Below, piece by piece: positions 3,129 through 36,651 of a stretch of 64,000 nucleotides of DNA (positions are counted from its first letter, which is position 1; every line of letters begins with the position of its first letter). Made by a program: the position numbers and the translations under genes. The DNA is taken from NCBI GenBank assembly GCA_902612805.1, contig CACMEY010000001.1:138805-202804 (forward strand), in the 5' to 3' direction. The notes below the pieces were generated by a model. That model ran no database searches. It was not told the origin of the DNA and saw nothing but the letters and a program-made list of their open reading frames with translations. The DNA is from an uncultured Alphaproteobacteria bacterium (GTDB lineage Bacteria > Pseudomonadota > Alphaproteobacteria > HIMB59 > GCA-002718135).

Positions 3129-3215
3129 GCGGCTGTGGCGGAATTGGTATACGCGCAGCGTTGAGGTCGCTGTGGGATTTATCCTGTGGAAGTTCAAGTC
3201 TTCTCAGCCGCACCA
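3129..3215 (+). tRNA. tRNA-Leu (anticodon GAG), type II with long variable arm, CCA encoded
   Basis: Hand-folded. The acceptor GCGGCTG pairs with CAGCCGC. The D stem is GCG/CGC. The anticodon stem is CAGCG/CGCTG with loop TTGAGGT (anticodon GAG). The long variable arm is TGGGATTTATCCTGT. The T arm is GGAAG-TTCAAGT-CTTCT. Discriminator A plus CCA ends at 3215. Confidence 0.9.
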
Positions 3216-7487: not shown

Positions 7488-8378
7488 ATGAAAATTGGTA
7501 TTGATGTAGGTGGTACCAAAACTGAAGGTATTCTTTTAGATCCAAATGGAACTGAAATAGATAGAAAAAGAATAAATACTGAAAAAAGTTATGATGGAAC
7601 AATTAAGGGAATACTATCCATTATAAATCATTTCGAAGATAAACACGGCAAAGCAGAGTCTGTTGGTATGGGAATGCCAGGAGCCATATCAAATGATACA
7701 GCTTTAATTAAAAATGCTAATTCTATATGGTTAAATGGCAAACCTTTTAAGCAAGATTTAGATAAAATTTTGGATAGAAATGTGAATTTGGAAAATGATG
7801 CTAATTGTTTTACTCTTTCTGAAGCTGTAGATGGAGCTGGTAAAGGGTTTGAAATTGTTTTCGGAGTCATAATAGGAACTGGTGTAGGTGGTGGTATCAG
7901 TATCAACCAAAAAGTAATAAGAGGTCGTAATAGCATAAGCGGAGAGTGGGGACACGTAGTTTTGCCGAGTAGAACAGAAGATGAAAAAAAATATGTCAAA
8001 AAATGTTATTGTGGAAAAGATGGGTGCTTAGAGACCTATATATCTGGACCAGGCTTTTCATCTGTCTATAATTTACGTTGCAATAAAAATTATAATTCAC
8101 ATCAAATATTAGATGGTTTTAATAATAAAGAAAAAGATAGTATCTTTGCACTAAATCAATATGTCGATCATTTAGCAAGAGGCTTATCTCTAGTTTGTAA
8201 TATTCTTGATCCAGATGTGATTGTTTTGGGTGGAGGTATGTCAAACATCGATTTTATTTACGAAAATATAAATGATGCTCTAAAAAAATATGTTTTTACA
8301 GATACCCTTCACACAAAAGTTGTAAAAAATATTCATGGTGATTCAAGTGGTGTAAGAGGAGCTGCTTGGCTTTCTTAA
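7488..8378 (+). CDS. mak: ROK-family sugar kinase, closest by recollection to E. coli Mak/YajF fructo(manno)kinase
   Basis: Blocks IGIDVGGTKTE, NANSIWLNGKPF, NDANCFTLSEAVDGAG, the ROK Zn motif CYCGKDGCLETYISGPG, ILDPDVIVLGGGMSN, and the C-terminal HGDSSGVRGAAWL. Confidence 0.75.
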   Translation: MKIGIDVGGTKTEGILLDPNGTEIDRKRINTEKSYDGTIKGILSIINHFEDKHGKAESVGMGMPGAISNDTALIKNANSIWLNGKPFKQDLDKILDRNVNLENDANCFTLSEAVDGAGKGFEIVFGVIIGTGVGGGISINQKVIRGRNSISGEWGHVVLPSRTEDEKKYVKKCYCGKDGCLETYISGPGFSSVYNLRCNKNYNSHQILDGFNNKEKDSIFALNQYVDHLARGLSLVCNILDPDVIVLGGGMSNIDFIYENINDALKKYVFTDTLHTKVVKNIHGDSSGVRGAAWLS

Positions 8379-9826
8379 ATACCACCCATTGAAATATATT
8401 TTATAGTTAAATAGTCATCAAGGCCATAACGAGAACCTTCTCTTCCCATTCCTGATTCTTTTACACCTCCAAAAGGCACTTCAGCAATTGTTGGTAGTCC
8501 ATTATTGATAGATACAATCCCATATTCAAGTGCTTCAGCTACTCTCCAAATTCTTCCTATGTCTCTTGAATAGAAATATGAAGCTAATCCATATGGTGTA
8601 TCATTAGCCATTTTAATCACCTCATCATCACTAGAAAATTTATAAAGAGGTGCAACAGGTCCAAATGTTTCTTCAAAAGTTATTTTTGCTTTTGTAGATA
8701 CATTTGAGAGAACAGTTGGTTGATAGAAATTACCACCAAGCGAATGCACATCTCCACCAATTGCTATTTTAGCTCCTGTATTTACTGCATCTTGAACATG
8801 ATCAATTACTTTTTCTAAAGAGGATTGATCAATTAAAGGACCAGATACAATTCCATCTTCAAGCCCATTACCCACTGTTATTTTACTGACTTCATTTGTA
8901 AATTTTTCTAGGAATTCATCATAAATATTTTCATGGACAAAAATTCTATTTGAACAAATACATGTTTGACCACTATTTCTAAATTTACTTTGAAGCGCGC
9001 CTGCAACAGCTTCATCCATATCTGCATCATCGAAAACAATAAAGGGTGCATGACCACCAAGTTCCATAGAAACTTTTTTTACTGTTGAGGCACTTTGCTC
9101 TAAAAGTATTTTTCCAACCTCCGTAGATCCTGTAAAAGAAATTTTTCTTACAATTGGGTTACTTGTTAGCTCTTTACCAATCTCACTTGCCGATCCAGTG
9201 ATTACATTAAATACACCATCTGGAAAACCAGCTTCTTTAGCAAGCACTGCTACAGCTAGTGCTGAATAGGGTGTTTGACTTGCTGGTTTAACAACAGTAG
9301 TACAACCAACAGCTAGAGCGGCTGCACATTTTCTTGTGATCATTGAATTTGGAAAATTCCATGGAGTTATTGCTCCCACAACACCAACAGGTTGTTTAAT
9401 TATTACAATTCTTTTTCCAGGTCTTGGATCAGGAACTATATCACCATACACTCTTTTTGCTTCCTCAGCATAAAATTCAATATATGAAGCACCCATTAGT
9501 ATTTCACCCTTTGCTTCAGCTAGAGGTTTACCTTGCTCAACAGTCATGATTTTAGCTAAATCATCTGCATTTACTGTAATTAGCTCACCCCATTTTTTAA
9601 GAATAACTGATCTTTCTTTCGCAGTAGTTTCTTTCCAAGTTTGGAAAGCAGTATCGGCATCATCTATAGCTTTTTTAGTTTCTGAAACTGAGCATTTTGG
9701 AACGTTGCCAATTATTTCAAGAGATGCTGGATTATTTACCTCAAGAGTTTCACCTGAAGAACTTTCAACCCATTCCCCATTTATAAAACATTTTTGTTTA
9801 AAGAGTGATTTGTTATTTAATTCCAT
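8375..9826 (-). CDS. gabD: NAD(P)+ succinate-semialdehyde dehydrogenase-like aldehyde dehydrogenase (GabD/Ssd/DoeC-like)
   Basis: ALDH motifs ITPWNFP, MELGGHAPFIVF, GQTCICSNR and EETFGPVAPL. It is divergent from the 9870 operon, with 43 nt between start codons. Confidence 0.8.
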   Translation of the reverse strand: MELNNKSLFKQKCFINGEWVESSSGETLEVNNPASLEIIGNVPKCSVSETKKAIDDADTAFQTWKETTAKERSVILKKWGELITVNADDLAKIMTVEQGKPLAEAKGEILMGASYIEFYAEEAKRVYGDIVPDPRPGKRIVIIKQPVGVVGAITPWNFPNSMITRKCAAALAVGCTTVVKPASQTPYSALAVAVLAKEAGFPDGVFNVITGSASEIGKELTSNPIVRKISFTGSTEVGKILLEQSASTVKKVSMELGGHAPFIVFDDADMDEAVAGALQSKFRNSGQTCICSNRIFVHENIYDEFLEKFTNEVSKITVGNGLEDGIVSGPLIDQSSLEKVIDHVQDAVNTGAKIAIGGDVHSLGGNFYQPTVLSNVSTKAKITFEETFGPVAPLYKFSSDDEVIKMANDTPYGLASYFYSRDIGRIWRVAEALEYGIVSINNGLPTIAEVPFGGVKESGMGREGSRYGLDDYLTIKYISMGGI

Positions 9827-9869
9827 ATGTTTTAATTATAATGCTTAGTTTTAAATTAAGGAAAATATA

Positions 9870-10973
9870 ATGACAATAGTTAATTCTTGGAATGAATGGG
9901 ATCCATTAAAACATGTTATAGTTGGAGCAGTTGAAAATGCCAACATACCTCCAATGGAACCGGCACTTGAACCAAAAATAAGTAAAGATAGTGGTATGGC
10001 AGGATCTCACGGACCACGCTCACAGGAGTCAATTGATAAAGCAAATATACAATTAGAAAACTTTGTTAAAATATTAAATTCCCTAAATATAAAAGTTGAT
10101 AGACCAACACCTATTGATTTTTCTAAGAGTATTGAGACACCCGATTGGTCTAATGATGGTATGTTTGGTTGTATGCCTCCAAGAGATGTTATTCTTACTG
10201 TAGGAAATGAAATGCTAGAGGCGCCCATGTCTTACAGATGTAGATGGTTTGAGTACCTTGCTTATAGGCCACTACTTGAAAAATATTATTCAGAAGATAA
10301 AAATATGAGATGGGAGTCGGCACCTAAACCAAGATTAACAAATCAATCTTATAAGTCTAATTATCTTCCTGAAGGCATAACGGAAGAAGAACGATATAAA
10401 AAAATCGAAAATAGAGACATGATATTGACCGAAAAAGAACCACTTTTTGATGCAGCAGAAATTTTACGTTTTGGAAAAGATCTTTTTTATCATAACAATT
10501 TTACATCAAATTTAAGTGGTTTAGATTGGTTAAGAAGGCATTATCCAAATCATCGTGTTCATCAAATTAATTTACCAGGTGATTTAATTCCAACTCACAT
10601 TGATGCATGTTTTACTCCTATTAAACCAGGAGTTATAATTATTAATCCGAATAGAAAAATATCATCAGAGCAAAGAAAAATTTTCGATGATAATAAATGG
10701 GAAATTTATGAAGCAGCACCTTCTATTCATAATAGTCCACCACCTATGTGTTATTCATCAATCTGGTTGTCAATGAATGTTTTGATAATTGATCCTAAAA
10801 CTATATGTGTCGAAGCAACGGAAGAAAAAATGATTAAACAAATGGAAAGTTTTGGATTGGATGTTATTCCTGTTCCTTTTAGAGACGTTTATGCATTTGG
10901 TGGTAGTCTACATTGTGCCACTACTGATGTTCATAGAGAGGGTGAGTGTGAGGATTATTTTCCAAATCAATAA
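9870..10973 (+). CDS. Amidinotransferase-family protein (glycine / inosamine-phosphate amidinotransferase-like, GME fold)
   Basis: 367 aa. The C-terminal catalytic-Cys block FGGSLHCATTDV is typical of amidinotransferases. Overall length matches StrB1/AGAT-type enzymes. Confidence 0.7.
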   Translation: MTIVNSWNEWDPLKHVIVGAVENANIPPMEPALEPKISKDSGMAGSHGPRSQESIDKANIQLENFVKILNSLNIKVDRPTPIDFSKSIETPDWSNDGMFGCMPPRDVILTVGNEMLEAPMSYRCRWFEYLAYRPLLEKYYSEDKNMRWESAPKPRLTNQSYKSNYLPEGITEEERYKKIENRDMILTEKEPLFDAAEILRFGKDLFYHNNFTSNLSGLDWLRRHYPNHRVHQINLPGDLIPTHIDACFTPIKPGVIIINPNRKISSEQRKIFDDNKWEIYEAAPSIHNSPPPMCYSSIWLSMNVLIIDPKTICVEATEEKMIKQMESFGLDVIPVPFRDVYAFGGSLHCATTDVHREGECEDYFPNQ

Positions 10974-11728
10974 TGAATAGTTTTAATCAAAATAATTTTA
11001 AAGCCAATTTACATGACACAAACTTTTCTAGAATTGGTATAATTACACTATCAACGGATTTTACCATAGAGCAGGATTTTAGAAAAATTTGCCATAATTT
11101 ACCAGTTGATCTATTTTTTAATAGGATACCTTTTTTAAATCCTCTAACTCATGAAAATTATATGAGAATGGCTGATCATCTTACAGAAACAACAAACCAA
11201 ATACTACCCAATGAAAAAATACAAGTTGTAGCGTATGGATGTACTTCGGGTACTATTGAAATTGGTGAAAAAAGAATAAGATCTGAAATTTTCAAGGCTA
11301 AACCTGATACTTTAATTACTACACCTATTACAGCAGCTGTCAAAGCACTTAAATTGTTAAACCATAAAAAAATTGCTGTTCTTACTCCCTATCCAAAAGA
11401 TGTTAATGTTAAAGTTTACAAATATTTAATTGATAGTGGATTTGAAATTAAATCATTTAGTTCATTTAATTTAAATTATGATTCGGAAATCGCCAAAGTT
11501 ACTCATGATAGTTTAATGCAAACAATTTCTTCAATTAATTTAACAGATGTTGATAGTATTTTTGTTTCTTGTACTGCATTAAAAGTAATTGATATTATCG
11601 AAACATTAGAGTCAAAATTAAGTACAGATATCATTTCAAGTAATCAAGCTATTATTTGGGATTCATTAAGATTATCTAATATTAATCAAAAAATTGATGG
11701 TTTTGGTAACCTATTTAAATTACATTAA
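10973..11728 (+). CDS. eutA: Asp/Glu-racemase-fold protein (maleate isomerase / arylmalonate decarboxylase family), EutA-like
   Basis: Two-Cys motifs YGCTSGT and FVSCTAL; about 250 aa. It is immediately followed by a threonine-dehydratase-like and a cyclodeaminase-like gene, which is the EutABC order. Confidence 0.6.
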   Translation: MNSFNQNNFKANLHDTNFSRIGIITLSTDFTIEQDFRKICHNLPVDLFFNRIPFLNPLTHENYMRMADHLTETTNQILPNEKIQVVAYGCTSGTIEIGEKRIRSEIFKAKPDTLITTPITAAVKALKLLNHKKIAVLTPYPKDVNVKVYKYLIDSGFEIKSFSSFNLNYDSEIAKVTHDSLMQTISSINLTDVDSIFVSCTALKVIDIIETLESKLSTDIISSNQAIIWDSLRLSNINQKIDGFGNLFKLH

Positions 11729-11740
11729 ATAGGGTTTAAA

Positions 11741-12703
11741 TTGATTACGCTTCAACAAATACAAGATGCACATAAGAAAATTTTACCTTATGTTAATTAT
11801 ACACCATTAATTAATTCTAATTTCTTATCAAAAAATACTACAGTAAAACTAAAGTTAGAAAATTTTCAAATCACTGGTTCATTTAAGTTAAGAGGTGCTG
11901 TTAATAAACTTCTTTCTTTAAGTGAAGATGACAAAAGAAAAGGAGTCATTGCAGTTTCTACAGGCAATCACGGTAAAGGGGTTGCTTATGCTTCAAACGT
12001 ATTGGGCATTCAATCAACAATATATATGTCTTCAATGGTTCCAGAATATAGAAAAGAAGCTATTGAAAAATTAGGTGCAAAAGTAGAAATTATTGGAAAG
12101 AATAGTGATGAAGCAGATTTGTATGCTAAACAAATTGCGAAAGAAAAAAATATCCCATTAATTCATCCTTTTGATGATGAAGATATTATTATTGGTCAAG
12201 GTACAGTTGGCCTTGAAATGCTTACTGAATTTCCCGAAGTTGATACAGTAATTATACCAACATCTGGTGGCGGTCTTATATCTGGAATAGCACAAGCAAT
12301 TAAACTTCAAAAACCTAACACAAAAATTATTGCCGTATCTATGGAAAGAGGCCCTTCAATGTATGAAAGTCTAAAAGAAGGTAAGCCTGTTGATGTAGAG
12401 GAAACTGAAACTTTAGCTGATTGTTTAGGGGGTAGTATTGGTCTAGATAATAAATTTACGTTTAATATTGTACAAAAATACGTAGATGACTTTGTTTTAG
12501 TGAGTGAAGAAAAAATAGCCGAGGGAATTAGAATAAATTTTTTAGAACATAAAATTGTATCAGAAGGTGCAGCAGCAACAAGTGTAATGGTTGTTAAAGA
12601 AAAACTGACATCACATTTAGGAAAAAATATAATCTGTTTAATTTGTGGTGGAAATATTGACTCGGAACTATTTAACAAAGTTTTAAGCCATGCTCATCCT
12701 TAA
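11741..12703 (+). CDS. eutB: Threonine/serine dehydratase-like PLP enzyme, EutB-like
   Basis: PLP-Lys motif GSFKLRGA, plus STGNHGKGVA and TSGGGLISG. TTG start. Confidence 0.65.
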   Translation: MITLQQIQDAHKKILPYVNYTPLINSNFLSKNTTVKLKLENFQITGSFKLRGAVNKLLSLSEDDKRKGVIAVSTGNHGKGVAYASNVLGIQSTIYMSSMVPEYRKEAIEKLGAKVEIIGKNSDEADLYAKQIAKEKNIPLIHPFDDEDIIIGQGTVGLEMLTEFPEVDTVIIPTSGGGLISGIAQAIKLQKPNTKIIAVSMERGPSMYESLKEGKPVDVEETETLADCLGGSIGLDNKFTFNIVQKYVDDFVLVSEEKIAEGIRINFLEHKIVSEGAAATSVMVVKEKLTSHLGKNIICLICGGNIDSELFNKVLSHAHP

Positions 12704-13664
12704 TAAAAATGATATTATTCAACATGTAGATTTAAATAAAAATCTCATACCAATAATAGAGGAGGCTTTCATAAGTTTATCAAAGGGATTGGTAATGATG
12801 CCACCTATAATGAGAATTGATATTGAAAAATATCATGGTGAATCAGATGTTAAAGCTGCATACGTTGAGGGTCTTGATAGTTTTGCAATAAAAATCGCTT
12901 CAGGTTTTTTCGATAATCCAAAACTTGGTTTGCCATCTAGTAATGGACTGATGGTTTTATTAGATTCAAAGACTGGAGTTGTAAAATCTGTTTTATTGGA
13001 TGAAGGTTATCTTACAGATACTAGAACAGCTATAGCAGGAGCAATAGCTACAAAATATTTATCAAATCAAAATGCTAATTCTGTTGGTATTATTGGTGCT
13101 GGAATTCAAGCCAAATTACAACTTCGAGCAATAATGTTAGTTAGAAAAATAAAAAAAATAATAGTCTGGACAAGAGATGAGACAAAAGCAAACCAATTTA
13201 TCGAAGGTTTTAAAGATTTAGATTTAGATTTGTATGTAGCTTCTTCTTGCAAGGAGTTGGCAAGTTTATCAGAAATAATCGTTACAACGACTCCTAGTAA
13301 AAAACCACTTTTGGAATTTGATTGGATAAATAAAGGGACTCACATAACAGCAATGGGATCAGATGCAGAACAAAAAAATGAATTAGATCCTCAGATGTTA
13401 AAACATTGCGATCAATATGTACCTGACAATCAATTACAAACAAGTGTTTTGGGTGAATTACATCATGCTTTAAAACAAAATATAATTTCTTCTAAAGAAA
13501 AATTTAATGAACTTGGCGATATTATTAACGATCCAAGCTTAGGAAGAAAAAATAAAGAAGATATAACAATATGTGATTTGACAGGAACTGGCGTACAAGA
13601 TACTGCAATATCAAGATTTGCTTATAATCTTTGTAAAATAAATTATTTAGGCATCAATATTTAA
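12690..13664 (+). CDS. eutC: Ornithine cyclodeaminase / mu-crystallin family protein, EutC-like
   Basis: Rossmann motif IIGAGIQAKLQ; 324 aa, a length typical of the OCD family. It overlaps the eutB-like gene by 14 nt. Confidence 0.65.
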   Translation: MLILNKNDIIQHVDLNKNLIPIIEEAFISLSKGLVMMPPIMRIDIEKYHGESDVKAAYVEGLDSFAIKIASGFFDNPKLGLPSSNGLMVLLDSKTGVVKSVLLDEGYLTDTRTAIAGAIATKYLSNQNANSVGIIGAGIQAKLQLRAIMLVRKIKKIIVWTRDETKANQFIEGFKDLDLDLYVASSCKELASLSEIIVTTTPSKKPLLEFDWINKGTHITAMGSDAEQKNELDPQMLKHCDQYVPDNQLQTSVLGELHHALKQNIISSKEKFNELGDIINDPSLGRKNKEDITICDLTGTGVQDTAISRFAYNLCKINYLGINI

Positions 13665-13667
13665 TTT

Positions 13668-15110
13668 ATGAGTCAAGCAGTAATAAAAAAAACGTCTGAT
13701 TACTTCAAATCAAAAGGAGTTGTCTTGCCCAGTATTAGTGAACTTCAAGACCCTCAAATTATTAATGATGATATTAAAAATTCTCTAAAAAAAATAAATA
13801 ATAACGATATCAATCCTCTTAACCTCTTTAGAGTTCATTGGTTTAATAAAAGAGATCAATCAGGTTTTGGAAATGAGCCTGAATATATTGTGCTACCAAC
13901 AGAATTCACGGGTGTTAAGGCAAAGATAATTGTAAATATGGGACGATATTTTCCCTTAATAACAGCTCATAAAGTTTTGGCAGCTTATGGTTGTTTGCTT
14001 CCAAGAATATTAAATGGCACTTTTGATTTTGAAAAACATAAAGCAGTTTGGCCTTCTACAGGAAATTATTGTAGGGGCGGAGTAGCAATATCTCGGATAA
14101 TGGGTCTTAATAGTATTGCAATACTTCCTGAAGGAATGAGTAATGAGAGATTTGAATGGTTGAATAATTGGGTTGAAGATAAAAAAAATATCATAAAGAC
14201 AAAAGGCACAGAAAGTAATGTTAAAGAAATTTACGATGCTTGTAATGAATTAAAAAAAGATAATCAAAATGATATTATAAATCAATTTGATGAGTATTAT
14301 AATTACGGTATTCATCGTTCTGTAACCGGTCCATCTTTTGAAAAATCATTTCTTAAAGTTAAAGGTAACAGTAATTTAACTCCTAGGTTTTACGTAAGTG
14401 CTTCAGGATCAAGTGGTACTCTAGCAGCAGGAGATTATCTTAAAGATAAATTACAGACGAAGATTGCAGTTGTTGAAGCTTTGGAGTGCCCAACTTTGCT
14501 TCATGGAGGTTATGGTGAACATAATATACAAGGAATTGGTGACAAACATGTTCCCCTTATTCATAATGTAATGAATACAGATTTTGTCGTAGATGTTTCT
14601 GATCAAGCTACCAATAATCTAAATATGATTTTTAATACTGAAATAGGAAAAAAGTTTTTAATTGAGAAAAAAAATTTTGAGCCTGATTTTGTTTCACGAC
14701 TTCCTGAGTTTGGCTTTTCAGCAATAGCAAATATATTGGCATCAATAAAACTAGCTAAATATATGGATTTAAATAGTGATGACGCAATTATAACGGTCGC
14801 TACAGATGGTGCAGATTTATACATGTCAGAGTTGAACAAGACCATTGCTGATTTTAAAAATAATTATGATGAAATAGTTTGTGCTGAACTATTTGGAAAA
14901 CACTTATCAGGAATATCTACTGATAATATGCTAGAACTTTCTTACATGGATAAGAAAAGAATATTTAATTTAGGGTACTTTACTTGGGTAGAGCAACAAG
15001 GTGTAAGTCTTGAAGAATTTGAAAAAAGAAAAGATCAAAAATTTTGGAATTCACATTATGAATATATGCTTTCTCTAGACAATAAGATTAAAGAATTTAA
15101 TAATATGTAG
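13668..15110 (+). CDS. Fold-type-II PLP enzyme (cysteine synthase/CBS-like core) with N- and C-terminal extensions; function unknown
   Basis: CysK-like blocks STGNYCRGGVA, SASGSSGTLAAG (phosphate loop) and QGIGD. The candidate PLP-Lys is in LITAHKVLAAY. At 480 aa it is much longer than CysK. Confidence 0.55.
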   Translation: MSQAVIKKTSDYFKSKGVVLPSISELQDPQIINDDIKNSLKKINNNDINPLNLFRVHWFNKRDQSGFGNEPEYIVLPTEFTGVKAKIIVNMGRYFPLITAHKVLAAYGCLLPRILNGTFDFEKHKAVWPSTGNYCRGGVAISRIMGLNSIAILPEGMSNERFEWLNNWVEDKKNIIKTKGTESNVKEIYDACNELKKDNQNDIINQFDEYYNYGIHRSVTGPSFEKSFLKVKGNSNLTPRFYVSASGSSGTLAAGDYLKDKLQTKIAVVEALECPTLLHGGYGEHNIQGIGDKHVPLIHNVMNTDFVVDVSDQATNNLNMIFNTEIGKKFLIEKKNFEPDFVSRLPEFGFSAIANILASIKLAKYMDLNSDDAIITVATDGADLYMSELNKTIADFKNNYDEIVCAELFGKHLSGISTDNMLELSYMDKKRIFNLGYFTWVEQQGVSLEEFEKRKDQKFWNSHYEYMLSLDNKIKEFNNM

Positions 15111-15113
15111 GTT

Positions 15114-16268
15114 ATGAAAACTCAGTCATTACATAACCAATTAGTAGAATGGCGTCATGATCTTCATATGCACCCACAATTAAGTTTTGAAGAAGAGTAT
15201 GCTGCAGCAAAAGTGTCAACACTTCTAAAAGAGTTTGGAATAGAAGTTCATTCTGGTATTGCCAGAACTGGAGTAGTTGGAATTTTAAAAAAAGGAAATA
15301 GTTCAAAATCTATAGGTATAAGAGCTGACATGGATGCCCTTCCTATACATGAAACTAATAAGTTTAGTTATAAGTCCAAGTTTGATAACAGAATGCATGC
15401 ATGTGGGCATGACGGTCACACAACAATGTTATTAGGTGCAGCAAAATATTTATCAGAAAAAGGTAACTTTAACGGTACGGTATATTTTATTTTTCAACCT
15501 GATGAAGAGAATACATTCGGTGCAAAAACAATGATAGATGAAGGATTGTTTGATAAATTTAACATTGATGAAGTTTACGCTATGCACAATATTCCTAATA
15601 TGGAAATTGGAACATTTGGTACAAGAAATGGAGCTATTACAGCCAGCGAAAATTTATTTGAAATTGAAATAAAAACTAAAGGTGGGCACGCTGCATTACC
15701 TCATATGGGGGTAGATGCAATAACTGTTGGTTCTCAAATAGCTGTAGCACTTCAATCGATAGTGTCTAGGAAATTAAATCCAGCAGACAATGGTATAGTG
15801 TCTATTACCGAATTTATAACCGATGGTAAAAAAAATGTTCTGCCAGGTATGGTAAAAATGACTGGTGACGCGAGAGCTTTATCAAAAGAAACAAATGAAA
15901 AAATTGCTTCTAAAATGTTACAAATTGTTGAAGGGATTTGCAATGCACATGGTGTTAATGGTAGTGTTAAATATGAAACAGCCTGTCCTGTAACTTTTAA
16001 TTCAAAAAATCAAACTGAGTCTGCAACAAAAGCTGCAGTTTCTTTACTTGGTAGTGATAAATGTAATGGTAATATAGAACCACGTTTATTCTCAGAAGAT
16101 TTTTCTGTTATGGCAAATGAAAAACCTGGTTGCTTTGTTTTAATGGGTAACGGAACATCAGAGCAGCATTCCAGACCTTTACATGCTGATAATTATGATT
16201 TTAATGACGAATTATTAGTCATAGGTTCTTCATATTGGACTGAATTGGTAGAACAACAATTAAAATAA
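15114..16268 (+). CDS. M20D-family amidohydrolase (hippurate hydrolase / N-acyl-amino-acid deacylase-like)
   Basis: Motifs HACGHDGHTTMLLGAAK and FQPDEE; 384 aa. Confidence 0.8.
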   Translation: MKTQSLHNQLVEWRHDLHMHPQLSFEEEYAAAKVSTLLKEFGIEVHSGIARTGVVGILKKGNSSKSIGIRADMDALPIHETNKFSYKSKFDNRMHACGHDGHTTMLLGAAKYLSEKGNFNGTVYFIFQPDEENTFGAKTMIDEGLFDKFNIDEVYAMHNIPNMEIGTFGTRNGAITASENLFEIEIKTKGGHAALPHMGVDAITVGSQIAVALQSIVSRKLNPADNGIVSITEFITDGKKNVLPGMVKMTGDARALSKETNEKIASKMLQIVEGICNAHGVNGSVKYETACPVTFNSKNQTESATKAAVSLLGSDKCNGNIEPRLFSEDFSVMANEKPGCFVLMGNGTSEQHSRPLHADNYDFNDELLVIGSSYWTELVEQQLK

Positions 16269-17441
16269 ATGTTTTCTGAAAACCTAAATAAACTAAAGAA
16301 AAAAATGTCTGAGAACAATATTGATCTCTCAATTATAACTGATGATGACTCGATATATTATTTCACAGGATACCATGACTTCCTTCATATGGATTTTTAT
16401 CGACCAACATTATTAGTTGTTTCAAATGATCATAAAACTTATTTAATTACACCTCTTCTTGATGTTTTATTAGTACCAGAATCTTGTCCTGTAGATATGG
16501 TTGAAACATGGAATGATGGTATTGGAAATGAATGGAGAGAACTATTACCTCAAATCATCAATCAGCATAAAAATATTTTTATTGAAAAATTTAAAATTAA
16601 TCCAATGGTTAAGAGTTATTTAGACGAATTACTTCAAGACCATCCTGGGGATTTAACCAAATTAATAGATAATATAAGAATGATTAAATCTAATCATGAA
16701 TTGAATATAGCTCGTCATGCTGGCGAAGTTGGTATGGCTATGATGGAGGCAGCAAAAAAAACAATTGGTCATAATGTTCCTGAGTATGAGGTTGCACTTG
16801 CACAATCACAAGCCGGAACAAGAAAAGCTGCAGATCTTTTAAAAGAATTTTATCCTGATAATATCAATATGTCCCCAAATATTCACTTTTTACCTGTTAT
16901 GACATCGGGTCATGATTTACCTAAAACTCACCATCGTGCTTCAACCAAAATTATAAAAAAAGGTGATCCCGTATTCGTATGTTATTGTGGTTCTACAAAT
17001 TTCCATAGGTTTAAATTAGGTTTTGACAGAATATTTTGGGTAGAAGAAATTCAATCTGATGAACAAATAAAAGCTTTTGAGACTGCAGTTAAATCTCAAA
17101 AAGCTGCTCTTGAAATTCTTGGTCCTGGAGTAACAGCTGAAGAAGTTCATGCTGCTTATGCAGATACTATACAGTCTGAGGGATACCCTTATCCTACTTT
17201 TCGATGTGGAAGAGGTACAGGCTTTAGCTTTTTAGAGGAACCACAATTAGTAGTTGGTAATAAAACAGTACTGGAGCCTGGAATGGTATTTGCCGTTGAT
17301 GGCGGAGCAAGTGCAAATAATTTTAGATCACAAGTTGGTGATAGTTTTATTATAACAAAAGATGGATACGAACAAATTACACATCATTCTAAAAATATTG
17401 ATGACCTAATAATTTCACATGGACGAAATCACAGTATTTAA
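16269..17441 (+). CDS. M24-fold protein of the creatinase / ectoine-hydrolase (EutD/DoeA) type
   Basis: Creatinase_N-like N-terminal half plus a pita-bread C-terminal half. The block VPEYEVAL is present. The canonical M24B metal ligands appear substituted (see findings). Confidence 0.65.
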   Translation: MFSENLNKLKKKMSENNIDLSIITDDDSIYYFTGYHDFLHMDFYRPTLLVVSNDHKTYLITPLLDVLLVPESCPVDMVETWNDGIGNEWRELLPQIINQHKNIFIEKFKINPMVKSYLDELLQDHPGDLTKLIDNIRMIKSNHELNIARHAGEVGMAMMEAAKKTIGHNVPEYEVALAQSQAGTRKAADLLKEFYPDNINMSPNIHFLPVMTSGHDLPKTHHRASTKIIKKGDPVFVCYCGSTNFHRFKLGFDRIFWVEEIQSDEQIKAFETAVKSQKAALEILGPGVTAEEVHAAYADTIQSEGYPYPTFRCGRGTGFSFLEEPQLVVGNKTVLEPGMVFAVDGGASANNFRSQVGDSFIITKDGYEQITHHSKNIDDLIISHGRNHSI

Positions 17442-18444
17442 CACACATTGCTGTGGTGAAATTGGAGATGTTGTAACTGGAATTAAAGGTTTGAAGTTTA
17501 ATTCACCTGAGGAAGCTTCTAAAAAACTTTTTTTAGATAAAAAATGGAGAAATTTTTTTTTAAATGAACCTCGGGGAGGGGTTTTTAAACATTGTAATAT
17601 TATTTTAGAACCTTCAAATAAAAATGCAGATGCTGGATTTGTAATTATGGAACCAGAAGATAATCCTCCAATGAGCGGATCAAATGCAATTTGTGTAACG
17701 ACAGTCTTATTAGAAAAAAATATTGTTCAAATGAAATATCCTAAAACCATGCTTACACTTGAAGCTCCCGGTGGTTTAATAAAAGTTGTTGCTGATTGTG
17801 AAAATAAGAAAGTTAAAAGTGTCACTTTAACTAATCTTGCCTGCTTTGCAGATAAAATAGATGTAGATTTAAAGACTAAAAATTATGGTACAATTAAAGT
17901 AAGTACTGCTTTTGGAGGTGACAGTTTTTTAATTTGTAATGCTAGTGATTTTAATCTTAAAATTGAACCAAAGAATGCAAATAAATTTGTAAATGTTGCT
18001 AAAGAATTATTGAAAGAAGCAAACGCATCTATAGGATTTGAACATCCTACAATTAAAGGATTAGACTATCTTTCCTTTTGCCAATTTATTGAACCCTTAA
18101 AAAAAAATAATCAATCATTACTTACAGGATTAAATACAGTTGTTATACGACCTGGGAAACTTGATCGTTCACCCTGTGGTACAGGCACTTCAGCAAGATT
18201 AGCAGTAATGAAAGAAAAAAATGAAATACAAATAAATGAAGAGTTTATATCAAAGTCTATTATAGGATCTTCATTTAAAGCAAGTATTGAAAAGGAAATT
18301 AAAATTAATAACAAAAATTGTATTATTCCAAAAATAACAGGTAGTGCATTTATTACTGGAAAACAAAGTTTATATATCGATAAGGATGATCCTTTTCCAG
18401 AAGGTTATAGATTAAATGACACATGGCCAGATTCATTAAGTTAA
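17419..18444 (+). CDS. Proline-racemase-superfamily protein (hydroxyproline epimerase / 3-hydroxyproline dehydratase-like), Ser/Cys type
   Basis: The second catalytic motif SPCGTGTSAR is present. The first catalytic position reads MSGS instead of MCGH. It overlaps the M24 gene by 23 nt. Confidence 0.75.
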   Translation: MDEITVFNTHCCGEIGDVVTGIKGLKFNSPEEASKKLFLDKKWRNFFLNEPRGGVFKHCNIILEPSNKNADAGFVIMEPEDNPPMSGSNAICVTTVLLEKNIVQMKYPKTMLTLEAPGGLIKVVADCENKKVKSVTLTNLACFADKIDVDLKTKNYGTIKVSTAFGGDSFLICNASDFNLKIEPKNANKFVNVAKELLKEANASIGFEHPTIKGLDYLSFCQFIEPLKKNNQSLLTGLNTVVIRPGKLDRSPCGTGTSARLAVMKEKNEIQINEEFISKSIIGSSFKASIEKEIKINNKNCIIPKITGSAFITGKQSLYIDKDDPFPEGYRLNDTWPDSLS

Positions 18445-18520
18445 CTGTGATTAAATAACACTAGCATGGCGATTTAATTCATTTTACTTTCATCAACTAT
18501 TCTAATAATTAATAAAACAA

Positions 18521-19786
18521 ATGACAAAATTTAATGCCTGGAATGTAATTAAAAACGGTTTAAATGGTCAGTCTTATTGGACTAGACAATGGCGTGATCC
18601 AGAACCAAAAAGTAGTTATGATGTTGTAATAATTGGTGGAGGTTTACACGGTCTTGCCACGGCATATTATTTGGCAAAGAATCATAATATAAAAAATGTA
18701 GCTGTCTTAGAAAAAGGCTGGATTGGTGGAGGAAACGCTGGACGTAATACAACTATTGTAAGATCAAATTATATGATGCCAGGCAACCACGAATTTTATG
18801 AACATTCTTTAAAGTTATGGGAAAATTTAAGTCACGAATTAAATTATAATGTAATGTTTAGCCAACGAGCTCATGTCTCGTTATTTCATAGCCCTGGTGC
18901 TAAAGATTCAGTTTCACGGATTTATAATATTATGCGACTCCACGGAACTGATGCAGAACTTTGGGATTTAAAAACTTTAAAGAAAAAAATTCCGCATTTA
19001 AATTATCATAATTCTAGATTTCCAATACTTGGAGCTGCAGTTCAAAAAAGAGCAGGCAATGCAAGACACGATGCAGTTGCATGGGGTTATGCAAGGGCTG
19101 CAGATACATTAGGTGTAGACATTCTGCAAAATTGTGAAGTTACAGGTTTTACAAGAAAGAATGGAAATATTGAAAGTATTCAAACTTCAAGAGGAATTAT
19201 AAAAGGAAAGAAAATAGGATTTGCTGTTGCAGGCAATACTTCAGTATTATGGCAAATGGCAGAATTAGGCAACCTGCCAATTGAATCCCATAAACTACAA
19301 GCATTTGTATCTGAGGCTGTTAAACCACTTCTAGACCAGGTTGTTGTTTATGGTGTAGGTGGTGCGCATTTCTATATATCGCAGTCAGACAAAGGAAGCA
19401 TGGTGTTTGGTGGTGATCTTGACTGGTATAAATCATATGCTCAAAGAGGAAATCTTCCTATGGTTCAAGATGTTGCCGAAGCGGCCATGGCAATATTTCC
19501 TTCACTTGGAAGAATAAGATTACTTCGTCATTGGGCAGGTGTTATGGACATGACAATGGACGGATCATTTTTTATTTGTAAAACGCCAATATCTAATCTC
19601 TATTTAAATGCTGGTTGGAACTATGGCGGTTTCAAAGCTAGTCCTGCATCAGGTTGGTATTTTGCCGACTTAATTGCAAATGAAAGCCCGCATAACTACG
19701 TGCAAAATCATAATTTAGAAAGATTTGAAAAAGGTATCAATATTGATGAACGTGGCGCAGGACCTGATCCAAAATTGCACGGTTAA
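18521..19786 (+). CDS. soxB: Heterotetrameric sarcosine oxidase, beta subunit
   Basis: FAD motif VVIIGGGLHGLATAYYLAK; 421 aa. soxD, soxA and soxG follow in the canonical order. Confidence 0.9.
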   Translation: MTKFNAWNVIKNGLNGQSYWTRQWRDPEPKSSYDVVIIGGGLHGLATAYYLAKNHNIKNVAVLEKGWIGGGNAGRNTTIVRSNYMMPGNHEFYEHSLKLWENLSHELNYNVMFSQRAHVSLFHSPGAKDSVSRIYNIMRLHGTDAELWDLKTLKKKIPHLNYHNSRFPILGAAVQKRAGNARHDAVAWGYARAADTLGVDILQNCEVTGFTRKNGNIESIQTSRGIIKGKKIGFAVAGNTSVLWQMAELGNLPIESHKLQAFVSEAVKPLLDQVVVYGVGGAHFYISQSDKGSMVFGGDLDWYKSYAQRGNLPMVQDVAEAAMAIFPSLGRIRLLRHWAGVMDMTMDGSFFICKTPISNLYLNAGWNYGGFKASPASGWYFADLIANESPHNYVQNHNLERFEKGINIDERGAGPDPKLHG

Positions 19787-20071
19787 ATGATTAGAATCAA
19801 TTGTCCTTATTGTGGTGAAAGAGATCATAGTGAATTTAGTTATGGAGGTGATGCAACAATCAATTATCCTTCGTTAGATGCATCAGAGAAAGAATGGACT
19901 GAAGCTATATTTTTCAGAAAAAATATAAAAGGTTTTCAATTTGAAACATGGCATCATTCTAATGGATGTAGAATGTGGTTGGTAGTTGAACGTTCTACTA
20001 TCACTCATGAAATAAAAAGTGTCAAACCATGCCATCCGGATTTACAGAAGGTTGTAAAAAATAATAAATGA
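19787..20071 (+). CDS. soxD: Sarcosine oxidase, delta subunit
   Basis: 94 aa. Zn-type motif CPYCGERDHSEFSYGG...HHSNGC. ATG immediately follows the soxB stop. Confidence 0.9.
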   Translation: MIRINCPYCGERDHSEFSYGGDATINYPSLDASEKEWTEAIFFRKNIKGFQFETWHHSNGCRMWLVVERSTITHEIKSVKPCHPDLQKVVKNNK

Positions 20072-23025: not shown

Positions 23026-23581
23026 ACATTCTGCACTAGAAACAATTTATAAGGTTGGAAAATATTCATCAAGCGAGAAACAATCTCTAACATTTAAAGA
23101 ATTAAAAAGTTTAGAAATTTTACAAATTGCTTGTTGGCCTGACAAAATTGATGAAATGAATAATTTAATATCAAAAGAACTAAAAATTAAAAATATTCCT
23201 AGTTTTAATAAAGGGATAATTTTTGAAAATAAATCATTATGGAGAATGGAACCTTTGAAATGGTGGCTATTTAATAAAGAAATTGAAATAAGTGAGCAAA
23301 TCGCAACAATTTTAGACATGTCTCATGCTTTCACAGGTATTGAAATTACAGGAGATAATTCATCATTATTTTTAAATAGACATCTTCCAATTGATTTAAG
23401 AGCTAGGAATTTTCCAGGTCTATCATCTGCTAGCACAGCCATTCATCATGTTAGTGTTAAGCTATTTAAAATAACTTCCAATAACTACTGTCTATATATA
23501 CCAAGAGGTTTTGCTTTATCAATTTGGGAGATCCTTCTTGAAACAGCAGATCAGTTTGGATACGAAGTATTAGAGAGATAG
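22994..23581 (+). CDS. soxG: Sarcosine oxidase, gamma subunit
   Basis: About 190 aa, directly after and overlapping soxA. An alternative start at ATG 23018 (ATGCATAG junction) is equally plausible. Confidence 0.75.
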   Translation: MILKENECMHRHSALETIYKVGKYSSSEKQSLTFKELKSLEILQIACWPDKIDEMNNLISKELKIKNIPSFNKGIIFENKSLWRMEPLKWWLFNKEIEISEQIATILDMSHAFTGIEITGDNSSLFLNRHLPIDLRARNFPGLSSASTAIHHVSVKLFKITSNNYCLYIPRGFALSIWEILLETADQFGYEVLER

Positions 23582-23655: not shown

Positions 23656-24372
23656 TTAATCATTTGCATCGCCACCTCCGGCACCTTTTGCCCTAGATTC
23701 CTCTGACTCAGGAACAAAAGTTCTAAAAGCTATTTTAGATATTTGATCCCAAGATTTTTTATCAGGATTAATACCCTTAGAGAGCATATTATCTATATTT
23801 GATGATGAAATATTAATATCTAATTTTTGTTCATTAAAAATTTTCTTTGTGAGTAAAAGATCAAAATTTCTTTGATAATTTGTAGAGATAATTTCTCTAT
23901 TAACCCTAATATTTTCATTTGTTATTTGTACATCAATTTTTTGATCTAACAAAAACTGTGAATAGATATTTTTTTTGGCATACTTATAAAGCAAAGGTAT
24001 TAGGAATATGGGGTCACTACAATTTTTAAAAGTTAATTTAAAATCATCCCTTTTATCTATTTTTGATACTAAATAATCAATCAATCCCGGGCCTATCACC
24101 AAAAAAGATTTATTTTCACAATCAAACTCATCATTTATTTTTGACGGATCTATACTGGCATTGAAAGTGTTATCTAATTCTTCAATTTTTAATTTTAATA
24201 ATTTGATCCCATCCAAACCAAATATTTCAAGCCATGTTGTAATAAATGCAGCATCCTCATCTGATCCATAAGTGAATCCTAATCCTGAAAAAGCTCGTTG
24301 TGTATTAGTGTAGACTTCATAGTAAGAATAACTCACAGATATTAATATGTACTCATTGTTGCAAAACCCCAT
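23656..24372 (-). CDS. Hypothetical protein (238 aa), no family recognised; coupled to the upstream 554-aa ORF
   Basis: Long open frame. Its ATG lies 31 nt inside the upstream gene. No TM segment or signal peptide. Gly/acidic C-terminal tail AKGAGGGDAND. Confidence 0.6.
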   Translation of the reverse strand: MGFCNNEYILISVSYSYYEVYTNTQRAFSGLGFTYGSDEDAAFITTWLEIFGLDGIKLLKLKIEELDNTFNASIDPSKINDEFDCENKSFLVIGPGLIDYLVSKIDKRDDFKLTFKNCSDPIFLIPLLYKYAKKNIYSQFLLDQKIDVQITNENIRVNREIISTNYQRNFDLLLTKKIFNEQKLDINISSSNIDNMLSKGINPDKKSWDQISKIAFRTFVPESEESRAKGAGGGDAND

Positions 24373-26006: not shown

Positions 26007-26060
26007 TTATTAAATATCTATAGTTAATTTTGGTTTTTTCATTAATAGAAGTATTAATCT

Positions 26061-27922: not shown

Positions 27923-27951
27923 TTGACTATTTGTTTTCATGCAGTTATTCA
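27923..27951 (+). promoter_or_regulatory. Candidate promoter of the ABC importer operon
   Basis: TTGACT (27923-27928), a 17-nt spacer, then TATTCA (27946-27951), upstream of ATG 27973. Confidence 0.35.
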
Positions 27952-27972
27952 AGCTTCATTACAATATATATT

Positions 27973-29061: not shown

Positions 29062-29192
29062 TTATACTTTTTTCTTTATATTTAGCCAAAATTTTTTACT
29101 TTTACCCCTTTTTTTTCATTTAACGACATGTTATTACACTCGCATTACGGACATAATCTTAAGATTAAATAATTAAAAATAGGAGGATATAT

Positions 29193-30296: not shown

Positions 30297-30330
30297 GCTT
30301 GAAAAAATAAAATTTGTAATTTAATCTAAA

Positions 30331-30355
30331 GGCGAGAATTATCTCGCCTTTTTTA
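30331..30355 (+). terminator. Rho-independent terminator/attenuator between the SBP and permease genes
   Basis: GGCGAGA-ATTA-TCTCGCC hairpin followed by TTTTTTATTT. The permease start codon follows immediately at 30357. Confidence 0.7.
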
Positions 30356-30356
30356 T

Positions 30357-31634: not shown

Positions 31635-31638
31635 TAGT

Positions 31639-32535: not shown

Positions 32536-32539
32536 AACA

Positions 32540-35199: not shown

Positions 35200-35238
35200 T
35201 TTCTGCGTTTTTTAATCAATTATTTTTGTTTCATTCTT

Positions 35239-35263
35239 TATCATTTAGGATATGAAAATGATA
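35239..35263. promoter_or_regulatory. Inverted repeat TATCATTT-N9-AAATGATA in a divergent promoter region (candidate operator)
   Basis: A perfect 8-bp inverted repeat in the 84-nt spacer between the ALDH start (35199, minus strand) and the GS-like start (35284, plus strand). Confidence 0.25.
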
Positions 35264-36642: not shown

Positions 36643-36651
36643 TTCTACTAA

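Follow-up and report, generated by a model that had tools for sequence, protein, structure and literature searches.

The closest described relatives of the locus presented here are the Eut/Doe clusters for ectoine catabolism, known from S. meliloti and R. pomeroyi (ehuABCD/uehABC-eutABCDE-asnC-ssd-atf) and, as the Doe genes, from H. elongata. The order eutA-eutB-eutC is stated for Alphaproteobacteria (PMC13188858), and the chemistry of EutABC has only been proposed in the literature (PMC5924519). We analyzed a 64-kb window (the whole stretch of DNA under study, 64,000 nucleotides of contig CACMEY010000001.1 from an uncultured alphaproteobacterium) in which eight plus-strand genes form a tight block at 9870-18444: an amidinotransferase, EutA-, EutB- and EutC-like proteins, a CysK-like enzyme, an M20D amidohydrolase, an M24 hydrolase and a proline-racemase-family protein (ProR), followed by soxBDAG. 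Because the locus has no DoeA, DoeB-type deacetylase, transporter, regulator or aminotransferase and mostly stays below the equivalog cut-offs, it should not be filed as a canonical ectoine cluster; it is a conserved, uncharacterised Eut/Doe variant. We tentatively read the block as an operon of the Eut/Doe kind, built from modules, that would break down osmolytes of the ectoine family or related N-acylated, hydroxylated or guanidino amino acids. This reading falls somewhat short of an even chance, and we infer all of its substrates and reactions. The initial annotation, made from the DNA letters, had called the combination an undescribed pathway. Our literature searches agree, having returned no account of these genes in combination, of ectoine breakdown by SAR11 or of an amidinotransferase in SAR11.

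Gene order and conservation

Coordinates were taken from the open reading frame (ORF) list of the window, and families were assigned with Pfam, NCBIfam and a PDB sequence search. The genes of the locus are:

8375-9826, minus strand: succinate-semialdehyde dehydrogenase (SSADH)-type aldehyde dehydrogenase (ALDH; GabD/Ssd/DoeC-like), divergent, 43 nt from the amidinotransferase gene (Pfam and NCBIfam)
9827-9869, no strand: divergent intergenic region of 43 nt, possible shared promoter region
9870-10973, plus strand: amidinotransferase of the L-arginine:glycine amidinotransferase (AGAT) family, first gene of the eight-gene block (PDB sequence search)
10973-11728, plus strand: EutA-like two-Cys racemase/epimerase, 1-nt overlap with the amidinotransferase gene
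11741-12703, plus strand: EutB-like pyridoxal 5'-phosphate (PLP) dehydratase, 12-nt gap after the eutA-like gene
12690-13664, plus strand: EutC-like imine reductase of the ornithine cyclodeaminase (OCD)/mu-crystallin family, 14-nt overlap with the eutB-like gene
13668-15110, plus strand: 480-aa PLP enzyme resembling CysK and cystathionine beta-synthase (CBS), 3-nt gap after the eutC-like gene
15114-16268, plus strand: M20D amidohydrolase, 3-nt gap after the PLP enzyme gene
16269-17441, plus strand: M24 'pita-bread' hydrolase, 0-nt gap after the M20 gene
17419-18444, plus strand: ProR, 23-nt overlap with the M24 gene
18521-19786, plus strand: soxB, 76-nt gap after the ProR gene
19787-20071, plus strand: soxD
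20068-23025, plus strand: soxA
22994-23581, plus strand: soxG

The ORF list matches exactly the layout first proposed, namely eight plus-strand genes separated by spacers of at most 12 nt or overlapping, a gabD-like ALDH divergent at 43 nt and soxBDAG after 76 nt. All of the earlier fold calls (amidinotransferase, racemase, threonine-dehydratase-like, OCD, CysK-like, M20D, M24 and Ser/Cys proline racemase) hold in Pfam, NCBIfam and PDB, and inspection of the eight-gene block agrees that it contains neither a transporter nor a regulator.

A conservation check across SAR11 genomes had also been suggested, and we ran it. Scanning species representatives (one genome per species), we located 247 stretches with a relative of the central PLP gene and kept 80 loci. 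The block order and its median spacings (-1, 12, -14, 3, 3, 0, -23 and 76 nt) are kept in about 50 species-representative SAR11/MarineAlpha5 genomes, including SAR11 single-cell genomes and MarineAlpha5 bins, at amino-acid identities down to 60-75%. Since order and spacings repeat in this many genomes, the eight-gene arrangement is conserved and operon-like and not due to chance. The divergent position of the ALDH gene is likewise kept in almost all related loci with enough left flank. Loci with enough flank on both sides fall into four variants: 23 resemble the window, 12 carry an additional DoeA-like gene, 3 have the DoeA-like gene and no ProR, and 4 end after the M20 gene, which is then followed by an ABC transporter and a DadA-like oxidase. 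The operon occurs in most of the related species-level genomes examined, and every one of its proteins has roughly 1300-2500 near-identical sequences clustered with it in the database. Public names are generic or wrong ('cysteine synthase', 'hippurate hydrolase', 'serine/threonine protein kinase').

The 43-nt divergent region (9827-9869) contains a TATAAT and an AAGGAA ribosome-binding-like motif; the promoter scan as a whole did not rise above shuffled controls, so that we only infer a shared promoter. The terminator scan was not above shuffled controls either and placed no terminator in the 76-nt gap between the ProR gene and soxB, an alignment of which shows conservation limited to close relatives. 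An Rfam scan of the whole window returned a tRNA only, and no riboswitch near the operon.

Enzymes of the block

EutA, EutB and EutC are the top NCBIfam families for the three proteins of the Eut-like trio, which follow each other in the A-B-C order of the S. medicae cluster. The EutA-like protein belongs to the Asp/Glu racemase/arylmalonate decarboxylase superfamily (Pfam Amdase) and scores best with TIGR02990 EutA (213 bits, 67% of the cut-off of 318). Its identity is 34% with S. medicae EutA and 30-34% with the EutA-like genes adjoining M24 homologues, and it conserves Cys90 (YGCTSG) and Cys200 (SCT), both catalytic cysteines of a two-base racemase. For the EutB-like protein, which is 42% identical to rhizobial (S. 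medicae) EutB, the scores are 377 bits with NF005680 EutB (91% of the cut-off of 413) and 348 bits with TIGR02991 (cut-off 413), threonine ammonia-lyase being the second-best family (321 bits); the PLP lysine, Lys49, and an STGNHG motif are conserved, and the top PDB matches are TdcB and serine racemases. The EutC-like protein, 50% identical to its S. medicae counterpart, exceeds the NF006141 cut-off (446 against 408) and reaches 406 bits with TIGR02992 EutC (86% of the cut-off of 472). The assignment of an EutABC trio in the initial annotation is supported by the top families, the gene order and the NF006141 model; EutA, EutB and the TIGR02992 EutC model stay below their cut-offs.

The top PDB matches of the EutC-like protein are an archaeal alanine dehydrogenase (1omo), delta1-pyrroline-2-carboxylate reductase (6t3e) and iminosuccinate reductase (6rqa). 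Because these nearest solved relatives are imine reductases, EutB and EutC may work as a dehydratase and a 2-imino-acid reductase that jointly remove a beta-hydroxyl. That the EutC-like protein is a true ornithine cyclodeaminase was ruled out (56 bits to OCD versus 160 bits to imine reductases); it groups with EutC and scores 68 bits with LhpI. The divergent ALDH (Pfam Aldedh, 575 bits) lies above the TIGR01780 SSADH cut-off (724 against 646) and below that of NF008415 GabD (734 against 828), which bears out its earlier description as SSADH-like.

For the amidinotransferase, Pfam gave nothing above threshold. The PDB sequence search aligned it over its full length (residues 4-364) with human AGAT, 1jdw, at 263 bits, and also with SxtG (227 bits), HsvA (209 bits) and StrB1 (193 bits). 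In the 1jdw alignment the equivalents of Asp170, Asp254, His303, Asp305, Arg322, Ser355 and Cys407 are conserved, and two flap positions are altered (Asn300 to Ile and Met302 to Thr). The catalytic triad, which we take from the structure literature to consist of Cys407, His303 and Asp254, is intact, and judged by its sequence the protein is a true AGAT-family enzyme. Its carboxylate- and guanidino-binding residues are retained as well, and arginine and glycine would be the candidate donor and acceptor. Five homologues (P0124, P0127, P0135, P0198 and P0228) are labelled 'serine/threonine protein kinase' by NCBI, a label that is a propagated misannotation. One homologue adjoins an arginase-family gene (L089), and the contexts of four others (L085-L088) were uninformative. 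The enzyme may serve as a nitrogen-saving alternative to ureohydrolases.

The 480-aa PLP enzyme gives weak PALP and CysK matches (CysK 72 bits, equivalog cut-off 351), with Lys102 and the STGNY and SGSSGT loops invariant in 23 homologues. An AlphaFold2 (AF2) model (predicted local distance difference test (pLDDT) 67, predicted template modelling score (pTM) 0.70) retrieved with Foldseek cysteine synthases, CBS and beta-cyanoalanine synthase at 20-24% identity; these are generic CysK/CBS neighbours, and neither sequence nor model gave anything more specific. Relatives number more than 8000 proteins, and the homologue lists of this enzyme and of M24 are saturated by SAR11 sequences of at least 74% identity and contain no informative names. 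The enzyme occurs with eutABC only in L072. In L067 it stands with an amidinotransferase homologue (62% identity) beside EhuA/C/D above equivalog cut-offs, an EhuB-like binding protein, a MOSC protein and two dioxygenases, and in L071 with an agmatinase-family ureohydrolase, a BhcC-like beta-hydroxy-D-amino-acid aldolase and a Lys/Arg/Orn-type ABC transporter. The best solved relative of the binding proteins beside both the PLP-amidinotransferase and the M24 modules is S. meliloti EhuB. The 480-aa enzyme is hence a recurrent 'hub' whose partners are guanidino-removing enzymes, beta-hydroxy-amino-acid enzymes and Ehu-type transporters.

Two further contexts of the 480-aa enzyme were seen. Its homologues lie beside two EamA-family transporters and a DUF6165 protein in the Rhodobacteraceae (L061/L062, around 9995-13280), and one is divergent from mgsABC/gmaS-like methylamine-utilisation genes (L069:1810-4734). 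Both contexts hint that its function is able to stand alone.

The M20 protein lies above the TIGR01891 cut-off (320 bits) and scores 316 bits with DoeB2, one of its best families (cut-off 550), and 319 bits with CpsA (cut-off 500); it is predicted to be an N-acyl-amino-acid deacylase. The adjacent M24 protein has Creatinase_N and Peptidase_M24 domains (Pfam) and low scores throughout: 57 bits with DoeA (cut-off 613), 70-86 bits with prolidases, 61 bits with creatinase 1chm and 31 bits with 7yto. Aligned with the P. furiosus prolidase 1pv9, it retains only one of the five metal ligands (the Asp, Asp, His, Glu, Glu set of Xaa-Pro peptidases): D220 is matched by Asp253, whereas D209 is replaced by Cys238, H284 by Arg315, E313 by Asp344 and E327 by Gly357. 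This active-site signature is invariant within the clade of the window protein and differs from DoeA at all five positions. Because four ligands are replaced by a clade-invariant signature unlike that of DoeA, the protein represents a third kind of metal-site-less 'pita-bread' hydrolase, from an uncharacterised clade. An AF2 model (pLDDT 51) was too poor for a fold search. The initial annotation had taken this protein for EutD/DoeA or, alternatively, for a creatinase-like enzyme. The first identity is contradicted by the DoeA score, by 21% identity to S. medicae DoeA and by the five changed positions; nor is the protein a creatinase orthologue, 61 bits being no better than the prolidase scores.

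The closest annotated relatives of M24, at 54-56% identity, are plasmid proteins of Roseovarius pelagicus and Aminobacter sp. SR38, where the gene order is AsnC - EhuB-like - ehuC - ehuD - ehuA - LysR - M24 - EutA-like - soxB - soxD - soxA - soxG and an M20 homologue (50-52% identical) lies a few genes from M24. The Roseovarius pelagicus plasmid locus (L090, 1-21140) also carries two EutA-like racemases, an 816-aa flavoenzyme resembling dimethylglycine dehydrogenase (DMGDH), a choline dehydrogenase and an ALDH around M24-sox; its Rieske oxygenase is not GbcA (133 bits, cut-off 670). This gene set suggests a putative N-methylated (betaine-like) substrate for that plasmid. More distant M24 proteins of Mesorhizobium and Paraburkholderia (41% identity) are encoded on symbiosis plasmids with an EutA-like gene, an amidase, a PotD-type ABC transporter and an N-formylglutamate-amidohydrolase-family gene.

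We extended these observations to metagenomes, in which 75 further M24 loci were found, 56 of them with enough flank for neighbour counts. A co-directional M20 gene lies immediately upstream of M24 in half of these (28 of 56), and an EutA-like gene immediately downstream in a quarter (14 of 56). Within the full set of 75, soxB occurs within 9 kb of M24 in 12 loci and Ehu-type ABC genes in 11; a ProR-like gene (42% identical) and an OCD-like gene lie near the M20-M24 pair in three loci (L169, L173 and L175). Because M20 directly precedes M24 so often, the two form the core unit. The pairing itself is observed; its chemistry might follow the logic of the DoeA/DoeB hydrolase-deacetylase pair.

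ProR (Pfam Pro_racemase, 329 bits) carries the catalytic pair Ser86/Cys253. Its PDB matches, 4k8l (350 bits, with Thr at the Cys253 position) and 4k7g (318 bits), are both of the Ser type; its equivalog score is 418 bits (cut-off 550), and a dehydratase-type pair (Cys/Thr or Ser/Thr) is not present. A characterised Ser/Cys member of the family is a 4-hydroxyproline epimerase and a Ser/Thr member a 3-hydroxyproline dehydratase (PMC4113996). ProR is predicted to be of the 3-/4-hydroxyproline dehydratase or 2-epimerase type and looks like an accessory gene, being missing from L026, L028, L030, L036 and L063.

SoxB exceeds the TIGR01373 cut-off (606 against 529), SoxD is recognized by Pfam, SoxA has GCV_T domains and SoxG is present, in the order B-D-A-G. 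The link of the block to soxBDAG that was initially proposed is borne out by the Roseovarius/Aminobacter plasmids, where M24 homologues (54-56%) lie directly upstream of an EutA-like gene and soxBDAG with a SoxB 75% identical. The enzyme, a heterotetramer of the sarcosine oxidase (TSOX) family, may act on sarcosine or on N-methylglutamate: SoxB is 50% identical to the S. maltophilia TSOX beta subunit and 60% to MgdA, encoded in an mgsABC-gmaS-mgd cluster of Aminobacter, while its identity to the SoxB proteins linked with M24 is 75-76%. According to a 2026 study (PMC13236597), homABCD convert homarine into N-methylglutamate, and N-methylglutamate dehydrogenase (NMGDH, mgdABCD) demethylates this product; mgd genes are routinely misannotated as soxBDAG, and SAR11 carries hom genes. 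Three genes directly downstream of soxG are relevant here:

23656-24372, minus strand: DUF3726 protein (Pfam)
24342-26006, minus strand: 554-aa protein without a Pfam match
26061-27047, plus strand: M19 dipeptidase

LysR-ALDH-dipeptidase-BCCT-567aa-DUF3726 clusters of Sulfitobacter (L095) and Aminobacter (L096) encode counterparts of the 554-aa protein and of the dipeptidase at 39-43% identity; the DUF3726 gene matches these clusters by Pfam family only, with no BLAST match. This Sulfitobacter/Aminobacter-type cluster fits the published homarine operon homABCD(R), for which the text of the paper gives no family names. If the genes at 23656-27047 are hom genes, the neighbouring 'soxBDAG' may encode NMGDH, and the end product could be glutamate rather than glycine. 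Pairwise identities did not separate Sox from Mgd, and the mgs region of Ruegeria conchae contained no mgd genes. We rejected the eight-gene operon itself as the homarine (hom) operon: it has no HomA/HomB-like pair, and the hom-like genes lie just downstream.

A gene of 391 aa directly after soxG ties the locus to ectoines in related genomes. It was found in 15 of the approximately 42 related loci long enough to judge, scores 462 bits with TIGR02993 and is 45% identical to S. medicae DoeA; its carriers include deep lineages at 72-74% identity. Loci with the gene are L004, L021, L026 (18912-20087), L027, L029-L031, L033, L034, L036, L042-L045, L054, L056 and L073. In the window, soxG is followed by 74 nt and then by convergent genes, so that this genome is without the canonical first enzyme at this site. 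Nothing else connects the locus with ectoines as strongly as this presence/absence polymorphism, which may be a marker of SAR11 ecotypes for ectoine use.

A possible route for ectoine-family osmolytes

If the block degrades an ectoine-family, N-acylated, hydroxylated or guanidino osmolyte, the following route could be envisaged. The metal-site-less M24 hydrolase would open or cleave a C-N (amidine or amide) bond, assisted in about one third of the sister genomes by the DoeA-like ectoine hydrolase encoded after soxG, and M20D would then remove an acyl group by the DoeA/DoeB logic. EutA (two-Cys epimerase), EutB (beta-eliminating dehydratase) and EutC (2-imino-acid reductase) could strip the beta-hydroxyl in the manner of BhcB/BhcD, and the CysK-like enzyme might carry out a beta-replacement or beta-elimination on a beta-substituted amino-acid intermediate. 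The amidinotransferase would shift amidino groups from guanidino substrates to an amino-acid acceptor, allowing a urease-less cell to keep the nitrogen with no release of urea. SoxBDAG would demethylate an N-methyl amino acid, the divergent SSADH would oxidise the semialdehyde end product, and ProR could provide an accessory entry for hydroxyproline through pyrroline-2-carboxylate and the EutC-type reductase. Overall products would be glycine or glutamate plus a C1 unit, succinate or aspartate, and ammonia.

The active sites on which such a route depends look intact (the amidinotransferase triad, EutA Cys90/Cys200, EutB Lys49 and Lys102 of the PLP enzyme), and the modules of the operon occur separately in other Alphaproteobacteria. 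Ectoine ranks among the main exometabolites of Crocosphaera, and Synechococcus and Micromonas release it too (PMC13012070). SAR11 strains are without urease, and agmatine inhibits them, possibly through urea (PMC8437039).

Several observations weigh against this route. M24 is only 21% identical to DoeA and has another active-site signature, EutA, EutB and the TIGR02992 EutC match are under equivalog cut-offs, and the trio is 34-50% identical to that of the Eut/Doe clusters. No DoeA-like ORF occurs anywhere in the 64-kb window; DoeB is not among the top Pfam/NCBIfam matches of the ten genes at 8375-19786, M20D being found instead; the block has no Atf/DoeD aminotransferase; and no Ehu/Ueh/Tea transporter or EnuR/AsnC regulator lies in or adjoining it, Ehu-type transporters adjoining the PLP-amidinotransferase and M24 modules in other genomes only. 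Known ectoine catabolism needs no N-demethylase, amidinotransferase or CysK-like enzyme. The modules are separate in other genomes, and in a streamlined genome their co-location could reflect co-regulation instead of one pathway. Finally, the EutABC chemistry that serves as the model is just a proposal (PMC5924519).

The diet of SAR11, the most abundant heterotroph of the surface ocean, shapes marine carbon and nitrogen flux, and the operon is a concrete lead to the nitrogen-rich compounds that these cells eat. If ectoine-family compounds are indeed the substrates, SAR11 would be a sink for ectoine-type solutes from Crocosphaera and other phytoplankton, and ecotypes would be marked by whether or not they carry the doeA-like gene. 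The locus also brings out three uncharacterised enzyme families that recur in marine Alphaproteobacteria and are ready for biochemical tests: the metal-less M24 clade, its M20D partner and the 480-aa CysK-like enzyme.

Alternative explanations

The block may instead be a mosaic 'nitrogen-scavenging island' of independent short pathways packed for co-expression, with no single substrate passing through all enzymes; we consider this rather unlikely, although it is the alternative that survives best. The amidinotransferase would then act on guanidino compounds, EutABC and the PLP enzyme on beta-hydroxy amino acids, M20/M24 on small peptides or amides, ProR and the OCD-family enzyme on hydroxyproline, and Sox on sarcosine or N-methylglutamate. 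Such an arrangement agrees with the occurrence of the modules apart from each other (eutABC with the PLP enzyme in L072, the PLP enzyme with the amidinotransferase in L067, M20-M24 on its own in numerous contigs of Rhodobacterales, operon variants that have no ProR or stop after M20), and with the surrounding 30 kb, a run of catabolic modules that includes the hom-like genes and a polyamine-type ABC transporter with an oxidase, ALDHs and a glutamine-synthetase-like gene. SAR11 is moreover known for few regulators and multifunctional enzymes (PMC8437039). A mosaic sits badly, however, with the spacing of zero to 14 nt with overlaps and with an order identical across lineages down to about 60% identity, including MarineAlpha5, which speaks for selection on the unit. 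M20 furthermore bridges the two halves, standing with amidinotransferase-eutABC-PLP in the short variant and with M24 elsewhere, and Ehu-type transporters recur with two different modules.

At the other extreme, the eight genes and soxBDAG might constitute one new pathway for an abundant marine hydroxylated, N-acylated or cyclic-amidine amino acid with a guanidino or N-methyl group, which we regard as unlikely. The metal-free M24 and M20D would carry out ring-opening and deacylation, the CysK-like family (>8000 homologues) a beta-replacement, and the amidinotransferase would replace ureohydrolases so that urease-less SAR11 keeps the amidino nitrogen. Were this true, the amidinotransferase could be the enzyme that links sarcosine and creatine in seawater.

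A third explanation, for which the odds are poor, is the breakdown of creatine or guanidinoacetate, in which M24 would be a creatinase-like amidinohydrolase yielding sarcosine for SoxBDAG and the amidinotransferase would interconvert arginine, glycine or sarcosine with guanidinoacetate or creatine. Creatinase, too, is without the M24 metal site, and the window protein has lost that site and kept a conserved His. The amidinotransferase is a bona fide AGAT relative with a homologue beside an arginase-family gene (L089), and M24 and sox are linked in Roseovarius, Aminobacter and metagenome contigs. Yet the match of M24 to creatinase 1chm (61 bits) does not exceed those to prolidases, its commonest partner is M20 and not sox, and creatine breakdown needs neither a deacylase nor a racemase. 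Marine communities make creatine from sarcosine with an enzyme that is unidentified (PMC9321204), and SAR11 has an arginine-binding protein with a value of 32 pM (PMC11485210). The urea released by a creatinase would be useless to urease-less SAR11. The amidinotransferase and M24 genes are five genes apart and not linked elsewhere, and EutABC, the PLP enzyme and ProR would be left unexplained.

Slightly less probable still is the use of hydroxyproline or its peptides, whereby M20 and M24 as peptidases would free 3-/4-hydroxyproline, ProR would dehydrate or epimerise it and the OCD-family enzyme would reduce pyrroline-2-carboxylate to proline. OCD-family pyrroline-2-carboxylate reductases and peptidases are typical neighbours of such genes (PMC4113996), M20-M24 lies near ProR-like (42%) and OCD-like genes in L169, L173 and L175, the closest structures to ProR are 3-hydroxyproline dehydratase-type proteins, and the best structural relatives of EutC include a pyrroline-2-carboxylate reductase. 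ProR is, however, missing from several otherwise intact operons and below its equivalog cut-off, and its Ser/Cys pair is ambiguous between epimerase and dehydratase. M24 is without four of the five metal ligands needed for prolidase chemistry, EutC groups with EutC and not with LhpI (68 bits), and the amidinotransferase, EutA/B, the PLP enzyme and Sox would have no role.

A biosynthetic function is very improbable. SbnA and SbnB (CysK-like plus OCD-like) make 2,3-diaminopropionate, the CysK-like and OCD-like genes are adjacent here (3 nt) and could likewise make a diamino acid for the amidinotransferase to guanidinylate into a guanidino or cyclic-amidine solute, the bacterial AGAT relatives SxtG, StrB1 and HsvA are biosynthetic, and PLP-enzyme homologues lie beside EamA-type exporter-like genes in Rhodobacteraceae. 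The Sbn scores are, however, very low (SbnA 24 and SbnB 100 bits), and two hydrolases, an SSADH and an N-demethylase are hallmarks of catabolism. Elsewhere the modules come with ABC transporters for uptake, and it is unlikely that a streamlined oligotroph would maintain a secondary-metabolite pathway of eight genes so widely.

Other features of the window

The window has a G+C content of about 30%, typical of SAR11. Upstream of the operon lie unrelated genes (mgtE, gshA, gshB, an unknown gene and a ROK kinase), and the downstream flank carries the hom-like genes, an EamA gene and a PotA-type ABC transporter. This transporter (27931-32535) is a paralogue, at 44-65% identity, of the one found after M20 in the short variants, which is itself 37-53% identical to the transporter beside the rhizobial M24. 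Transporter and DadA-like oxidase replace M24-ProR-sox after M20 in L024, L035, L037 and L038; in L048 the transporter genes alone are seen after M20 before the contig ends. A catabolic module of the polyamine type is encoded at 27931-39181: the PotA-type transporter (ATPase, binding protein and two permeases) is followed there by genes for a DAO-type oxidase, an ALDH, a glutamine-synthetase-like protein, a second ALDH and an Fe-alcohol dehydrogenase.

A sugar/amino-sugar island follows at 40715-59311, with an SDR, three GFO/IDH/MocA oxidoreductases, a TauD-like dioxygenase, a galactokinase-like GHMP kinase, a GH20 beta-hexosaminidase, a sugar-type ABC binding protein, a GMC oxidoreductase and an enolase-superfamily enzyme; the GH20 enzyme is unusual in a streamlined SAR11 genome. 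An exact-sequence look-up of two window proteins at 46-49 kb returned no database record. The tRNA at 3129-3212 (plus strand, Rfam 52.7 bits) overlaps the called GTG start of mgtE (3186), the true start of which is probably further downstream.

Comparison with known systems

BhcB (beta-hydroxyaspartate dehydratase) and BhcD (iminosuccinate reductase), a threonine-dehydratase-like PLP enzyme and an OCD-family imine reductase that together convert a beta-hydroxy amino acid to an amino acid, are the model for EutB/EutC; the window proteins score low with both (BhcB 214, cut-off 550; BhcD 181, cut-off 500), and the substrate is another one. The 480-aa enzyme shares its fold and PLP-binding Lys with CysK/CysM and differs in its length, with extra N- and C-terminal segments, and in a score below the cut-off. 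With AGAT, SxtG, HsvA and StrB1 the amidinotransferase has in common full-length similarity, the triad and the substrate-binding residues Asp170/Asp305/Arg322/Ser355, whereas its flap residues differ and its context is catabolic, not that of creatine or natural-product biosynthesis.

The module of Roseovarius pelagicus, Aminobacter sp. SR38 and marine Rhodobacterales comprises probable orthologues (M24 54-56%, M20 50-52%, SoxB 75% and SoxA 57% identical) and shares the M24 signature and the M20-M24 adjacency. Unlike the window, these loci have their own transporter, LysR/AsnC/GntR regulators and an EutA-like gene directly after M24. Some loci of this type also encode a Rieske oxygenase, an enzyme resembling DMGDH or a diaminopropionate ammonia-lyase, and the loci are without the amidinotransferase, EutB/C, the 480-aa PLP enzyme and ProR.

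The replacement of DoeB by an M20 amidohydrolase, suggested in the initial annotation, has precedents in the pNGR234a cluster (AsnC-ehuBCDA-M20-eutB-eutC-M24-M24) and in the NCBIfam families DoeA2/DoeB2, and is thus not new in itself: in pNGR234a as here, M20 stands in for the DoeB-fold deacetylase together with eutBC and M24. The window M20 is, however, 27% identical to that of pNGR234a and below the DoeB2 cut-off of 550, and the two pNGR234a M24 proteins are DoeA-like (270 and 397 bits), which the SAR11 M24 is not. Compared with the canonical ehuABCD-eutABC-doeA-doeB cluster of S. medicae, EutA/B/C of the window are 34/42/50% identical. With the Eut/Doe clusters in general, the locus shares the order of the trio, the combination of M24 with an amidohydrolase, the adjacent SSADH-type ALDH and, in sister genomes, the DoeA-like gene; beyond these, it adds an amidinotransferase, a CysK-like enzyme, a proline-racemase-family gene and soxBDAG.

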